A stretch of DNA of 64,000 bases from Armatimonadota bacterium (GTDB taxonomy: Bacteria; Armatimonadota; UBA5829; DSUL01), in the NCBI GenBank assembly GCA_039811685.1, contig JBDHZC010000004.1:274745-338744 (forward strand). The letters are read 5' to 3'. The position numbers and the translations under genes were made by a program. Each line of letters opens with the position of its first letter. Position 1 is the stretch's first letter. Positions 18,201 to 63,860 of the stretch are shown one piece after another. A model generated the notes under the pieces. That model did no database searches and was not told the origin of the DNA. It saw nothing but the letters and a program-made list of their open reading frames with translations.

Positions 18201-18833
18201 TCTAAAGTGCCAGAAGCTGCATCCTTCTCGCTGGATGAGGTTCAGGTGATAGACACGCAAGGCGCCAATGTTGCTCTTGGAAAACTCTACGTCGTGGACG
18301 GATATCAGGATGTCTTTCAGTCCGGGGTGTTGGATGGTGAACGTGTTGGAGCTGCCAAGGCACTGCCTGACGGCACTCCGGTCACTCTTGACGATTGCGT
18401 GCTCTACTACAAGCAGGGGACCCTGGCGTATGTCTCGGACGTCGGCCGTGCGGCAGGAATTCGCCTCGAAGGCGTAATAGACGCACCGGAAGGTTCGATT
18501 ATCACCGCTAACGGCGTGCTTGGAACAACATCCGGTGGCGAGCGTTTCGTCCAGCTCTCAAGCGCTTTCAAGACTGGGTCAACCACTCTGCAGCCCTTGT
18601 TCGCTCAAAATCATGCGCTGAAGATGCCTCTTATGGATGGGCTCTTCGTCTGTGCCTTTGGAAGAGTGGTGGCCGGCTCCGTGACTCCAAACTCCTACGT
18701 TCTCTCGGACGGCTCGGGATCTGCCGGTGTGAGAGTTGTCACTCCGGGGACTCCTTCGGTTTCGGAGGGCGATCTGGTAAAAGTCACAGGCGCGGCGGGC
18801 TATGACTCCGGACGGGTCATCTACACCCATTGA
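15282..18833 (+). CDS. Secreted multidomain clan GH-A glycoside hydrolase (GH39/GH5-like) with a large internal insertion and the shared C-terminal domain
   Basis: Signal peptide; VRYDILW, YYEINNEPD (acid/base), WHPY, VFLGEM (nucleophile); ATG 15282 with GAGGGA RBS. Confidence 0.75.
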   Translation: MRVRAGNNRILGALFARVLKHIAISSVLLSLGVSTHGSALDADAHTRLTDGVRASSSIVDPAWLTLFADSSQLPRTQNALGEFAFWGLNAPHGFSPSLTPDQFDMVKNANIRGVRYDILWGGIQQNGPDSYDWNWNGLQDDINTYVQNGFTVECLLGFFPAWANGMRDRSVPSNTAVEQQLVNFSSSDTVSLGHENIFLTEPDEMPVVVTPDPPQTTRYSNEVVTTSFQQGRAVRASHYPVIVGTEKVEVDENDGQGYRTWTRVDNLINSPDGAEHYQFDRSGRVKFRNNSLFWNHGKTPADGSKIRISYDAQTKIYEMGVDYNFDNMSGEITRLPGEVTGFLPEENFSTVPLDSRWQWMNPPMSFSVNAAGSGVLHYPVNAPMNEVGHFLYQTIAGSGDFTISVRAKQFSASSTSQTGVLIYQDAGNWFRYSVTSDQGRPYLTRCVNGTVTVYGYSGELGWMCTAPRWVTVRKHGNTFTVFNSVSSLSGPDGGYSNLYTFTQNLNFPLKAGISSSGVDPVGVDIDQVLIKTPSIPVGGSVRISYNALNTEPFTTFVRAFVTQFKDRVKYYEINNEPDQSWCWRGGMELYAVWLRETAKAVRETDPSAKVICGGFANGASSNLEHLYASIGKNWFDYAAWHPYLFSNVSPDAANWALNESNGVGRAVMTDNGDASKEVFLGEMATASGVLTSGGGMGDARQAEYGTRLLMWARRVGWAKAVQWWPAIDLYPVGVAEDNQWGGHEGLFYSSGAPKPVFWSMKNLASNRGVLMDLGSYDANNNLTPASGHYTVNKVVLGVQDRSAVASVNVLTSLTNTDDSSKPAVVAAAFSGQSGGQAFTVNVNTTSSGLKTETWTLSRLSTRSFGVSGSASGPQGTAVVGQPFTSYNGVVSFTLPSVPNGYASGDSFVFRTFRGDGFKTAASWTNGSGTTNLNDLLPPSEGSGPQLSSVLSGPGDIVIDLPAPADARYVSIQVSKVPEAASFSLDEVQVIDTQGANVALGKLYVVDGYQDVFQSGVLDGERVGAAKALPDGTPVTLDDCVLYYKQGTLAYVSDVGRAAGIRLEGVIDAPEGSIITANGVLGTTSGGERFVQLSSAFKTGSTTLQPLFAQNHALKMPLMDGLFVCAFGRVVAGSVTPNSYVLSDGSGSAGVRVVTPGTPSVSEGDLVKVTGAAGYDSGRVIYTH

Positions 18834-18910
18834 GCCGCGTTTCGTCCGCCTCTGTCCCGCACGCCGCCGTAACATAAGCTCACGGTCAGGCGCACTGGTC
18901 GCAGCAAGAA

Positions 18911-18944
18911 AAGACAGCCTCTGACGAAAGCCGGAGGCTGTCTT
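18911..18944. terminator. Hairpin between convergent genes, probable terminator
   Basis: AAGACAGCCTC..GAGGCTGTCTT; T-rich tail on minus strand. Confidence 0.65.
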
Positions 18945-18968
18945 AGAATCCCCATGAAGAAGTGTCCT

Positions 18969-61289: not shown

Positions 61290-61375
61290 TCTTGTGAGTA
61301 TCCCTTAGCTCCGGTCTGTTCGGAGTAGCTGGGGCTGATAGACGACGCACATTGTCAGCTCCAAACCCAAGTCAC

Positions 61376-61419
61376 GCAGCCGGACTGTCTTTCCGAAGGT
61401 AGTCCGGCTGCCTTTTTTT
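61376..61419 (+). terminator. Rho-independent terminator
   Basis: GCAGCCGGACT..AGTCCGGCTGC followed by T7. Confidence 0.85.
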
Positions 61420-61637
61420 CAGGATGCTCTTACCTGTGAACCTCGACAACAACAGGCGGATTTCAAATACATAGTGAAGTCCTATGCTGTGTATTCGTGC
61501 GAGGTGTCCGGGACTCAGGATTCAAAATGGCTTGATGACGGCTGGCGTTGACGCCAGCTCTGGCAGCGATGTCGCATCGGGCGGTGTCGTAGAGCATGAA
61601 GTCGGTAGAATATCGGGAAAGGGAAAGGAAAGCGGCT

Positions 61638-63860
61638 ATGAAAGCAATGCATTCCATTGCGATTGCACTCATTAGCGCAGCCATTGTGGCCGGCGCTGGG
61701 GTGCAATCTAGCGCTCAAAACCTCATTGTCAATGGGGACATGGAAGGTGCGTGGACGACTGGCGGAACATACACAGTTGGTAGTCAGATTGGTGAGACGA
61801 TCGACGGGTGTTATGCGACCGGCTGGACTCCGTGGAACCAGTGGATCATTCCAGAGCCTGGAGATCTGGATCACGTGCCGGTAGATCTAAAGTTCACCGA
61901 TGAAGATGAGGACTGTGGAAATACTCCAACCCAGAATCATTTTCAGCGATTTACCTGTGACCTGATTAGCCCTTACCAGATGGTAAGAGGTGGATTTGTG
62001 CAGGCTGTGCCAACTACGCCGGGACAGGACTACGATTTTGATGCGCAGGTTCGTATCAACGGTGGTCTGGTTCAGAGCCTCATTGGTTATGACCTGACCG
62101 GGCAGGCGACTGACCCCCTCGCGGAGACTATTGTGTGGCTGCCTGATTACATTCCGGCGCTTGCGACCTGGGAACAGTACTCTATGCATTTTACTGCCAT
62201 CGCAAATGACAACGGAAACAAGACCAGTGTCTGGATCAAGTACACAATTCCGTGGGGTGGCACCGGATCGATGGATCTGGACAACGTTGCGGTGACTGCA
62301 ACGACGGGCGACTATCTCACCATAACGGATGGCCCGTATGCGAACCGTCTGTCTGATACCAGCTATGAAATAGTCTGGACTACCAATGTCGGCGCTGATT
62401 CGACAGTCCAGTTTGGTGAGAATAAGCCGGACAACGACAGTAAACTGAATCCGCAGGAGCCGGCCTATGAAGCTTCTATAACTGAGAGCGGAGTCACGCA
62501 GACGCACTCAGTCGTTTTATCTGGCTTGAAAGCTACTCAGGCCTACCATTATCGAGTGAAGAGTTCTCGCGCTGGATCGAAGACAACCTATAGCCTGGAC
62601 AATATCCTGGTCACTCCAGACACTGCTAACGCCGTGTTTCAAAACGGCGATTTCGAGATTACAGATCCTCCTTCACCTCCTCCCAGTTACGGTCAGACTG
62701 CGGTAGGTTGGAAGAAGTTCTCCATCCCGCCTGGAGAAGCAGGTGTTGGTGGAATGGAGGAGGGTGACGGCATCGTCACCTATGGCGCCAATCAGTTCGG
62801 CTATTGGAATGGGTTTGCGAAGGCGCAACACGGAAATAACTTTATCGCTTCCGTCAGTAGCTGGGGGACCAAGAACGGTGGATTCCTGCAGCGAGTGAGT
62901 GTCACTCCCGGCGCGGACTATACGTTCTCTGGTTACATTGGTAGTCACGCCTTCAGCGCGCAGTGGCCGGTAGATCCTTCTGACGCCAATGTGTGGGTCG
63001 GCATTGATCCCCATGGCGGTATTGATCCAACTAATCCGGGCGTTGTCTGGAACGATCCAAACGAAAGATTCGGTAATAACGCCGCGCCGGTCGTTTATAC
63101 CCCGACATCCGTTACTGCGACGGCCGCTTCAAACGTTATTACTCTGTTCGTTCGCTTCGAGCAGCGTTGGGCTTTTCAATGGAATATCAATATCGCGGAC
63201 AACTTCACCCTACAGGGACCTCCTGGAGCCTCCGTTCAGGTGCCCAATATCGGGGTAGCAAAAGAGCAACCCGACGGCTTGCTCTTGGATATCACAAACG
63301 GCATGATCGTCACTCTTGTGGCGAACTATCCTGAGACGGGTCTGTTCTACATGCAGGACGCCGAGGGCAATTCTGGTATCCGCGTTGAGACGGGTGGCAC
63401 GGTGCCGGCGGTCGGTGACAAGGTGCTGGTGAAGGGCGTTCTGGGTACAAACCCGAATGGTGAGCGCGTTATTCGTGATGCAATTGTTACGCCCAATGGC
63501 ACGGGTGCCACAGTCGTTCGTACAATGGCGAACAAGAGCGTCGGAGGCGCTGGCTATGTTGACGCCAACCTCGGGCTTGGCACTCAGGGCCTTTTGGTCC
63601 GCGTGTTCGGGCAGCTTCAGAAATTCGATATCGTGAATGACTTCCTGATCATCAACGATGGCAGCAACGTCAATCCGTTGGAACAGGACGGCACTCTGGG
63701 TCTCAAGGTCGTCCACACGGGCTACTTCCCTGGCTCATTGGATGAGTATCTGGCGGTAACAGGTGTTGTGGCTTCTGAGCAGATCAATGGCCAGAACATC
63801 CGTGTCATCCGCGGACGCGACAGCCTGTTCCCGAGCGATGTAGTGAATCTCAAGCTGTAG
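61638..63860 (+). CDS. Secreted protein: CBM-like + FN3 + CBM-like + shared C-terminal domain (paralog B)
   Basis: Colinear with 58020..60227 over its full length; similar AAAGGAAA RBS context. Confidence 0.8.
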   Translation: MKAMHSIAIALISAAIVAGAGVQSSAQNLIVNGDMEGAWTTGGTYTVGSQIGETIDGCYATGWTPWNQWIIPEPGDLDHVPVDLKFTDEDEDCGNTPTQNHFQRFTCDLISPYQMVRGGFVQAVPTTPGQDYDFDAQVRINGGLVQSLIGYDLTGQATDPLAETIVWLPDYIPALATWEQYSMHFTAIANDNGNKTSVWIKYTIPWGGTGSMDLDNVAVTATTGDYLTITDGPYANRLSDTSYEIVWTTNVGADSTVQFGENKPDNDSKLNPQEPAYEASITESGVTQTHSVVLSGLKATQAYHYRVKSSRAGSKTTYSLDNILVTPDTANAVFQNGDFEITDPPSPPPSYGQTAVGWKKFSIPPGEAGVGGMEEGDGIVTYGANQFGYWNGFAKAQHGNNFIASVSSWGTKNGGFLQRVSVTPGADYTFSGYIGSHAFSAQWPVDPSDANVWVGIDPHGGIDPTNPGVVWNDPNERFGNNAAPVVYTPTSVTATAASNVITLFVRFEQRWAFQWNINIADNFTLQGPPGASVQVPNIGVAKEQPDGLLLDITNGMIVTLVANYPETGLFYMQDAEGNSGIRVETGGTVPAVGDKVLVKGVLGTNPNGERVIRDAIVTPNGTGATVVRTMANKSVGGAGYVDANLGLGTQGLLVRVFGQLQKFDIVNDFLIINDGSNVNPLEQDGTLGLKVVHTGYFPGSLDEYLAVTGVVASEQINGQNIRVIRGRDSLFPSDVVNLKL

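Follow-up and report, generated by a model that had tools for sequence, protein, structure and literature searches.

The described systems closest to the element reported here are the PEP-CTERM/exosortase (EpsH) system, the C-terminal domain of the type IX secretion system (T9SS) of Bacteroidota (Por_Secre_tail), and the accessory modules SLH, LysM, dockerin and the carbohydrate-binding modules (CBMs). The element itself, hereafter the module, is a domain of about 200 amino acids (aa) that ends six secreted proteins encoded in a 64,000-nucleotide (nt) stretch of an Armatimonadota genome (assembly GCA_039811685.1, contig JBDHZC010000004.1, positions 274,745 to 338,744), the whole of which we call the window. 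The T9SS C-terminal domain resembles the module in being a folded C-terminal domain on many unrelated secreted proteins of one lineage, but it is a single beta-sandwich of about 80-100 aa, whereas the module is predicted to be a tandem of oligonucleotide/oligosaccharide-binding (OB) barrels. SLH, LysM, dockerin and the CBMs are, like the module, modular accessory domains that are usually terminal, sometimes repeated, and carried by many exoenzymes per genome; they differ from it in fold. PEP-CTERM signals occupy the same end of the same passengers as the module, show the same presence and absence across genomes of its class, and are likewise carried by tens of signal-peptide proteins in each genome. 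A PEP-CTERM signal, however, is a motif of about 25 aa with a transmembrane helix and a basic tail that is cleaved by exosortase, and the available part of Haft et al. 2006 (PMC1569441) ties PEP-CTERM/EpsH to exopolysaccharide (EPS) production and the outer membrane. In contrast, the module is a soluble 200-aa double barrel with no PEP motif or transmembrane helix, and thus is not an exosortase substrate of the known kind.

Other likenesses lie in the fold. Tandem OB folds within one domain of about 200 aa also make up the HIN-200 domains (IFI16, p202, p204 and the AIM2 family), which belong to eukaryotic intracellular sensors of double-stranded DNA; the module is acidic and exported, is only 12-16% identical to them, and superposes at a root-mean-square deviation (rmsd) of 7-10 Å, a value high enough that the barrel-to-barrel arrangement must differ. 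No Pfam match connects the two, and the likeness is one of fold only. The BOF family (PF04076; YgiW, PDB 1nnx) is an exported, periplasmic bacterial OB fold, but its members are stand-alone single-domain proteins of about 110-130 aa, while the module is a tandem fused to large passengers and does not qualify as a member. Among surface or extracellular nucleases, we take the YhcR-type OB fold of Bacillus subtilis to be one of the closest. The closest solved sequence relative of the first barrel (OB1) is an OB domain on another exported, surface-located enzyme, SpnA, in which the OB domains lie at the N-terminus and bind the enzyme's own DNA substrate, as far as the available part of its description goes (PMC13601614). 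Unlike SpnA, the module is a fixed OB1-OB2 pair, mostly C-terminal, acidic, and attached to about 80 unrelated passengers.

By behaviour, the systems nearest to the module are PEP-CTERM (same slot, same genomes), the T9SS C-terminal domain and the non-covalent wall-binding modules, and yet it lacks the defining features that were tested for each of these. We propose, at a probability of about 0.45, that it is a non-covalent retention module for exoproteins. An earlier note on this DNA, made from the letters alone, had suggested a sorting or anchoring system; the tether or anchor half of that suggestion is the better supported and is what we infer here, while the architectures described below argue against a cleavable routing signal.

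The module in the window and its predicted fold

Six open reading frames (ORFs) of the window encode module proteins, and the E-values given here for their modules come from a profile hidden Markov model (HMM) made from the 71 remaining genome copies without these six. P0001 (ORF 15195-18833, plus strand, likely start near 15282) has a GH5-like (GH-A-like) passenger with a DUF1349-like part, followed by the module at 18288-18830 (HMM envelope residues 1032-1212; E 1e-32). On the minus strand, P0002 (18969-21308) consists of two copies of an unnamed domain of about 250 aa, here called GSEL, that matches no Pfam family, and of the module at 18972-19646 (residues 555-778; E 2.1e-51), and P0003 (22285-25359) joins a GH13 alpha-amylase (PF00128, E 2e-38) and one GSEL domain to the module at 22288-22962 (residues 800-1023; E 3.1e-49). 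The remaining three are on the plus strand: P0004 (36549-39314, likely start near 36654) with a GH-A catalytic domain, two FN3-like parts and one CBM-like part ahead of the module at 38697-39305 (residues 717-919; E 6e-43), P0005 (57978-60227, likely start near 58020) with FN3-like and CBM-like parts, a weak choice-of-anchor C match within the passenger, and the module at 59553-60221 (residues 526-748; E 1.7e-45), and P0006 (61596-63860, likely start near 61638), a tandem paralog of P0005 with the same kinds of parts and the module at 63183-63851 (residues 530-752). All six modules are C-terminal, and those of P0005 and P0006 are 82% identical over 223 aa by BLASTP. The GSEL domain, for which neither Pfam nor NCBIfam holds a covering family, is recognizable by the motif NGSEL(D/N)QLF ... 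GN(I/L)E(T/G)NGN ... FLD; in P0003 it lies between GH13 and the module.

A Sec-type signal peptide (basic n-region, hydrophobic core, small-x-small site) was seen on inspection in all six proteins, beginning in P0001, P0004, P0005 and P0006 at a methionine internal to the listed ORF. Their last 180-225 residues or so can be aligned, with 21-31% identity to the first sequence and 14 invariant columns. BLASTP reported all 15 pairs, 12 of them at E < 1e-6, and the three weakest (E 0.009, 0.014 and 2.8) each include P0001. Since the HMM from the 71 other copies finds all six at E 2e-51 to 1e-32, their similarity does not depend on how they were chosen. The profile matches the window at these six places only; no match was obtained in either PEP-CTERM protein, in the Tat-signal protein or in any cytoplasmic protein encoded there, and other secreted proteins, such as the GH10 enzyme at 31684-33024, also lack the module. 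The earlier note had described just this, namely one C-terminal module shared by six signal-peptide proteins with two GH-A-like passengers, a GH13, a GSEL-repeat protein and two FN3/CBM paralogs, absent from the cytoplasmic, Tat and PEP-CTERM proteins; its account holds, and its module starts fall within about 50-100 nt of the HMM envelopes.

The AlphaFold2 (AF2) model of the P0001 tail has a mean pLDDT of 80.7, and about 85-95 over the module, where a short helix is followed by two five-stranded barrels according to DSSP (OB1 at about 18378-18581 and OB2 at about 18645-18827, plus strand). In this model the five-stranded closed barrel that characterizes the OB-fold superfamily is present twice. 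VIA-align matched OB1 to AspRS (1n9w, Z 11.1), to 3e0e (Z 10.9) and to YgiW (1nnx, Z 10.8; rmsd 2.5 Å over 76 residues), and OB2 to RPA14 (8aaj_C, Z 10.3; rmsd 1.7 Å over 72 residues). For the whole unit, the best Foldseek matches were the tandem-OB HIN-200 domains (E 6e-4, TM 0.32-0.36), followed by RPA, telomere end-binding proteins and LysRS anticodon domains. The model and these matches bear out the earlier impression that the two halves are OB folds, and we describe the module as a predicted pair of OB barrels spanning about 200 aa. A prediction of a two-copy complex of the module, run with an alignment of 77 genome copies, returned no answer (score 0.00), and no conclusion is drawn from that score.

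At the level of sequence, Pfam and NCBIfam contain no family for the module in the six window proteins, as the earlier note had supposed for characterised families in general. When the 77 genome copies were compared to Pfam, only weak matches to the OB clan were retrieved: PF01336 (tRNA_anti-codon OB) at E <= 1 in 16 of 77 (best 1.5e-8; none among the six window proteins), BOF (PF04076) in 12 of 77 (best E 0.0041; none over the cut-off) and RMI2 in 11 of 77. One protein, L092, reached 32.2 bits overall against PF01336, for which the curated cut-off is 27 bits, with no single stretch over the cut-off. Models of the Por_Secre_tail/TIGR04183 type did not match the six proteins (Pfam, NCBIfam) or the 77 modules (Pfam), and no SLH, LysM, dockerin or known CBM family matched the 77 modules in Pfam at E <= 1. 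Against PDB sequences, the 77-copy profile linked OB2 to Pyrococcus RPA14 (E 6e-5) and OB1 to YgiW/BOF (E 4.6e-4) and to the OB domain of Streptococcus pyogenes SpnA (9sf8/9sf9, E 1.2e-4; profile positions 29-114 against chain residues 19-124), with which it shares the pattern FYvQD ... GIRV ... GD.v.v.G. None of the matches to SpnA, YgiW/BOF and RPA14 is strong enough to establish family membership; within the OB superfamily, the module makes up a divergent family of its own that is new.

Conserved positions are mostly glycine and hydrophobic core, and paralogs are only 20-35% identical. The best-conserved polar residues of the 77-copy consensus are D-R..G, G-E-R and D-D-G-S, which, mapped onto the DSSP assignment of the model, fall in loops L23 and L45 of OB1 and in L23 of OB2, respectively. 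The L23 and L45 loops usually form the binding face of an OB fold, and the placement of these residues therefore supports a ligand-binding OB domain, as do the sequence links, since SpnA, YgiW/BOF and RPA14 are all ligand-binding. The module is acidic, with a median isoelectric point (pI) of 5.07 and a median net charge of -4, and is net positive in 7 of 77 copies; this argues against general DNA binding, a reading that we have set down without discarding it. Separately, frames of about 1100-1450 aa in one class genome, G135 (contig C1, e.g., 446435-454368 and 883910-888030), match the second OB half only, over 60-70 residues at E 1e-6 to 1e-8, and single-OB relatives of the module may therefore exist.

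Carriers, architecture and distribution

A six-frame profile search of the 3.42 Mb assembly, which is 97% complete, gave 84 matches, and 80 proteins of the ORF set are carriers, so that about 2.8% of the crude gene set (80 of 2871) bears a folded domain that no curated library names. Every one of the 80 carriers has a single module. The module ends within 15 aa of the C-terminus in 60 of the 80 and within 30 aa in 64, and about 70 of the 80 begin with what a crude rule takes for a signal peptide. Real domains nevertheless stand behind the module in 9 of 77 full copies, among them an FGE-sulfatase, a metalloprotease-like region and CBM-like jelly rolls. In 6 of 78 copies fewer than 80 residues lie ahead of the module, and L078 (257 aa), L056 and L075 amount to a signal peptide plus the module. 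In L075 (contig C3 of this genome, 134116-135063, minus strand), a secreted protein of 315 aa, about four repeats of some 20 aa with the pattern PVDAISREF(S/T)AY(V/A)G... run directly into the module.

Passengers are diverse. A Pfam scan of 79 carriers found four S8 proteases, Amidase_2 and Amidase_3 peptidoglycan amidases, an EEP nuclease and a metallophosphoesterase; glycosidase passengers of GHL10, GH39-like, arabinofuranosidase, glucoamylase and NAGPA type; several beta-helix and beta-propeller proteins; an FGE-like enzyme; and GSDH, DUF362, LTD and laminin-G domains. In 28 of the 79, no Pfam family was found at the thresholds used. Such a range of passengers argues against a substrate-specific CBM.

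Beyond this genome, a library of cluster representatives at 50% identity gave 4870 matches at E <= 0.001 and 3580 at E <= 1e-10. Among the 154 best-scoring representatives, which were re-scanned and whose ranking by total score favours multi-copy proteins, the module is terminal in 116 and not C-terminal in 38, and it occurs in two or three tandem copies in 25. The earlier claim that the module is always single-copy is thus true of the genome and false of the family, and the claim that it always lies at the extreme C-terminus fails in both, although most copies do lie there; 9 of 77 genome copies are internal or N-terminal. Likewise, the strict C-terminal, single-copy placement of the T9SS domain is not what we find. 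Because internal or N-terminal, tandem and signal-peptide-plus-module forms all occur, the module is better read as a binding module than as a cleavable routing signal of the T9SS or PEP-CTERM type.

The module is a class-level expansion within Armatimonadota and is not phylum-wide. In a 301-genome sample of the phylum it was found in 47 genomes, comprising 31 of the 34 from the window's class, with tens of first-look candidates each, and 16 of the 267 outside it, with one weak match each. A search of all 53 class genomes located it in 48. Apart from three module-poor genomes (G312, G222 and G298, 1-4 copies each), these have from 17 to at least 58 scored matches, the larger counts being lower bounds because at most 57 first-look candidates, out of up to 237, were scored per genome. 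The module was not found in five class genomes, G108 (99% complete), G305 (88%), G117 (96%), G153 (91%) and G316 (84%); they fall in two families that otherwise carry it, which implies at least two independent losses. The five Armatimonadota metagenome-assembled genomes nearest by ClpC (76-78% identity) have no or one weak module match and so lie outside the module-bearing class. Five genomes of other phyla gave no match, a sample too small to show absence. The literature on Armatimonadota C-terminal and OB-fold domains, sorting signals and PEP-CTERM/exosortase yielded no description of the module; the 58-aa C-terminal beta structure in the available part of a paper on a Fervidibacter GH10 enzyme is a different one.

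Exosortase, PEP-CTERM and the proposed role of the module

The earlier note had named as support for its idea an HMM search with many hits per genome, nearly all C-terminal and on signal-peptide proteins, restricted to a lineage and accompanied by a conserved set of envelope genes. Such a set exists in the form of exosortase and its EPS loci. Exosortase (PF09721) is present in 48 of the 53 class genomes, and these are the same 48 that carry the module; it is absent from the same five. As a control, a secretin was found in 52 of the 53, including 4 of the 5 module-less genomes, and was therefore rejected as co-varying machinery. DUF1559 pseudopilins persist in all five module-less genomes (11-94 matches each) and were rejected as specifically tied to the module, although DUF1559-like prepilin genes lie near 13 of 75 module genes, against 3.4 expected for random genes or 5.6 for random signal-peptide genes. 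One DUF1559-like prepilin-type gene lies in the window (26060-26830). The three exosortase loci of the genome are all EPS biosynthesis and export loci, encoding an export protein, a chain-length determinant with tyrosine kinase, a priming glycosyl-phosphotransferase, a flippase, EpsI and a PrsT-like TPR protein, and they match the PEP-CTERM/EpsH system in the part of Haft et al. 2006 (PMC1569441) referred to above.

None of 75 module proteins fits the PEP-CTERM pattern, while 52 PEP-CTERM-like proteins are encoded elsewhere in the genome. Twelve of those 52 share a passenger with a module protein, and four of the twelve pairs are adjacent genes. In one of them, the C5 pair, the adjoining same-strand genes encode proteins of 460 and 275 aa that are 59% identical over about 260 residues up to ...LYIGL(D/N)(K/R)P(L/V)V, after which one continues into the module and the other into PEPSS, a hydrophobic helix and RRKQS. 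A second adjacent, same-strand pair (68% identical) splits in the same way at the end of the passenger. Recent tandem paralogs thus swap the module and PEP-CTERM at the same junction, which places the module in the slot that decides where a protein ends up.

The genes of the two kinds also lie together. A PEP-CTERM gene is found within two genes of 25 of 75 module genes, compared to 4.7 expected for random genes and 7.0 for random signal-peptide genes, and none of 1000 permutations reached 25; 18 pairs are immediately adjacent, 13 of them on the same strand. The window holds two such small PEP-CTERM genes, the only ones in it with a PF07589 match. The first (21335-22021, minus strand; two X25 starch-binding-like stretches, PF22058 E 3e-14, and a tail matching PF07589 at E 2.4e-5) sits between P0003 and P0002, and the second (60651-61289, plus strand; a CBM-like domain and a tail matching PF07589 at E 4.5e-5) between P0005 and P0006, each on the strand of its neighbours. 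The CBM-like domain of the second is related to that of the flanking P0005 and P0006, and its passenger is 30% identical over 184 aa (E 1.4e-11) to a module protein of the genome.

From these observations we infer that the module binds a ligand and that this binding would retain the protein. On this reading the module, an accessory domain of Sec-exported proteins in one Armatimonadota class, would bind a ligand and have no catalytic activity of its own. It would hold a wide variety of exoenzymes and binding proteins to a common extracellular polymer at the cell surface or in a matrix or slime layer, and would stand in these proteins where others made by the same cells have the covalent PEP-CTERM/exosortase signal. 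As the ligand, the exopolysaccharide made by the exosortase-linked EPS loci is the most attractive candidate, a tentative suggestion that we would not call probable. Equally speculative is the idea that module and PEP-CTERM form two arms of one exosortase/EPS-based surface display system in the class. Small binding proteins would then be processed covalently by exosortase, large module-bearing enzymes would dock non-covalently onto the exosortase-dependent exopolysaccharide, the slime layer would become an enzyme-loaded digestive matrix, and evolution could shift a passenger from one mode to the other by exchanging its tail.

Several points weigh against retention, or against its link to exosortase. 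The PEP-CTERM, pilin and signal-peptide calls all rest on regular expressions or crude rules applied to a crude ORF set, and 60 of the 80 copies lie at the very C-terminus, as expected of a sorting signal. Tight adjacency to PEP-CTERM genes is strong in this genome only, out of three families compared: 2 of 26 module genes have a PEP-CTERM neighbour in G135, of another family, and 2 of 23 in G304, of a third, where the background is 3 of 320. Regional counts of PEP-CTERM-like ORFs (5 in 377 kb around modules versus 2 in a 380 kb module-free control in G135; 6 versus 1 per 380 kb in G304) point weakly in the same direction as this genome, the numbers being small. Outside the class, exosortase is found in 188 of 267 genomes and a single weak module match in only 16 of 267, and the three module-poor class genomes have exosortase with their 1-4 modules; exosortase is thus at most necessary and not sufficient. 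No more than two or three independent events underlie the co-loss, and a common change of lifestyle could explain it; for instance, five module-poor genomes gave no match to the glucoamylase passenger of L084, and S8 proteases were found in only three of the five. The single S8 protease of G108 and of G305 (L184, 436-2973, and L185, 460-2922, both minus strand) ends in a shared unnamed region of about 250 aa with GWN(L/M)(F/I/V) repeats instead of the module. The S8 protease tail of G222 resembles CarboxypepD_reg by eye only, and none of the S8 proteases of G108, G305 and G222 ends in a recognised anchor. A tail swap between orthologs in module-less genomes, as a sign of functional equivalence, was considered and dropped, the glucoamylase and S8 protease comparisons having given none.

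The best surviving alternative, which we still consider unlikely, is that the module acts like a promiscuous CBM and targets an external polymer, for example cell-wall debris of foreign origin, extracellular DNA, or glycans from plants or microbes, concentrating enzymes on food and not on the producing cell. Oligosaccharides and nucleic acids are ligands of OB folds, CBMs typically occur in tandem and at variable positions, many passengers are polymer hydrolases, including the peptidoglycan amidases and a nuclease, and OB1 is related to the DNA-binding OB domains of the nuclease SpnA, as given in the part of PMC13601614 available. No one substrate fits, however, since those of the passengers (protein, DNA, starch, pectin-like glycans, peptidoglycan) are unrelated, the acidity of the module (pI and charge as above, with 7 of 77 net positive) speaks against general DNA binding, and both the exosortase co-absence and the PEP-CTERM swap would go unexplained.

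More doubtful again is a signal for secretion or outer-membrane translocation by lineage-specific machinery, in the manner of the T9SS C-terminal domain. It would account for the carriers ending within 15 aa of the module (60 of 80), for their signal-peptide-like N-termini (about 70 of 80), for the single copy in all 80, for the lineage restriction with tens of copies per genome, and for the mutual exclusion with PEP-CTERM, another C-terminal sorting signal. It does not sit well with the internal or N-terminal positions in 9 of 77 copies, the 25 of 154 representatives that carry it two or three times in tandem, the signal-peptide-plus-module proteins that have no cargo, or the secreted window proteins without a module, such as the GH10 at 31684-33024, and a stable double barrel of 200 residues is large for a tag. 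No dedicated machinery or co-varying translocon was found, secretins not tracking the module and PorV/SprA-type genes not having been searched for.

About as improbable is a dockerin-like docking domain, which would bind a surface receptor, possibly one anchored by PEP-CTERM, or self-associate into multi-enzyme assemblies. The 18 pairs of immediately adjacent module and PEP-CTERM genes in the genome, 13 of them same-strand, and the exosortase co-occurrence fit such a role, and some OB domains do mediate protein contacts, e.g., in the trimerisation core of RPA, the closest sequence match of OB2. The PEP-CTERM neighbours, however, are diverse, clustering as groups of 5, 4, 3 and 2 with no domain common to all, the adjacency is weak in the families of G135 and G304, and no repeated cohesin-like scaffold was seen. 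Very unlikely, finally, is a passive end-cap that stabilises, spaces or shields large exoproteins from proteases with no specific ligand; the predominance of glycine and hydrophobic core among conserved positions and the 20-35% identity of paralogs would suit it, but the conserved charged motifs in canonical binding loops and the signal-peptide-plus-module proteins would not, and it gives no reason for the exosortase co-loss or the PEP-CTERM swap.

Retention, then, is the reading we prefer; if it is right, a modular retention role is filled here by a family, and a fold, that are new to it. What is new in the evidence is the exact co-absence of module and exosortase with its secretin and pseudopilin controls, the junction-precise swap with PEP-CTERM and the absence of proteins with both tails, the restriction to a class, the tandem-copy statistics, and the finding that tight adjacency to PEP-CTERM genes replicates poorly in other families. 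If the tether is real, it would be the means by which a lineage of mostly uncultured and little-studied polymer degraders holds on to its exoenzymes; the exosortase/PEP-CTERM system, itself still poorly understood, would gain a non-covalent partner, and annotators a marker for the extracellular proteome of the class. The module would also be a candidate display or immobilisation tag, and its co-absence with exosortase offers a testable handle on the role of the exosortase-linked polysaccharide.

Other genes of the window

Several long ORFs of the window match no Pfam family at E <= 1e-4, namely one of 1182 aa, two adjoining ones of about 390 aa each, and the Tat-signal protein, which carries TRRQLLAGAAA (minus-strand positions 53761-57309, 39364-41703 and 52495-53607). 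Upstream of P0001, at 10721-14800 on the plus strand, lies a gene for a RecQ-type helicase (DEAD, Helicase_C, RQC, HTH_40) with a C-terminal phosphoribosyltransferase-like domain, followed directly by a DprA gene.

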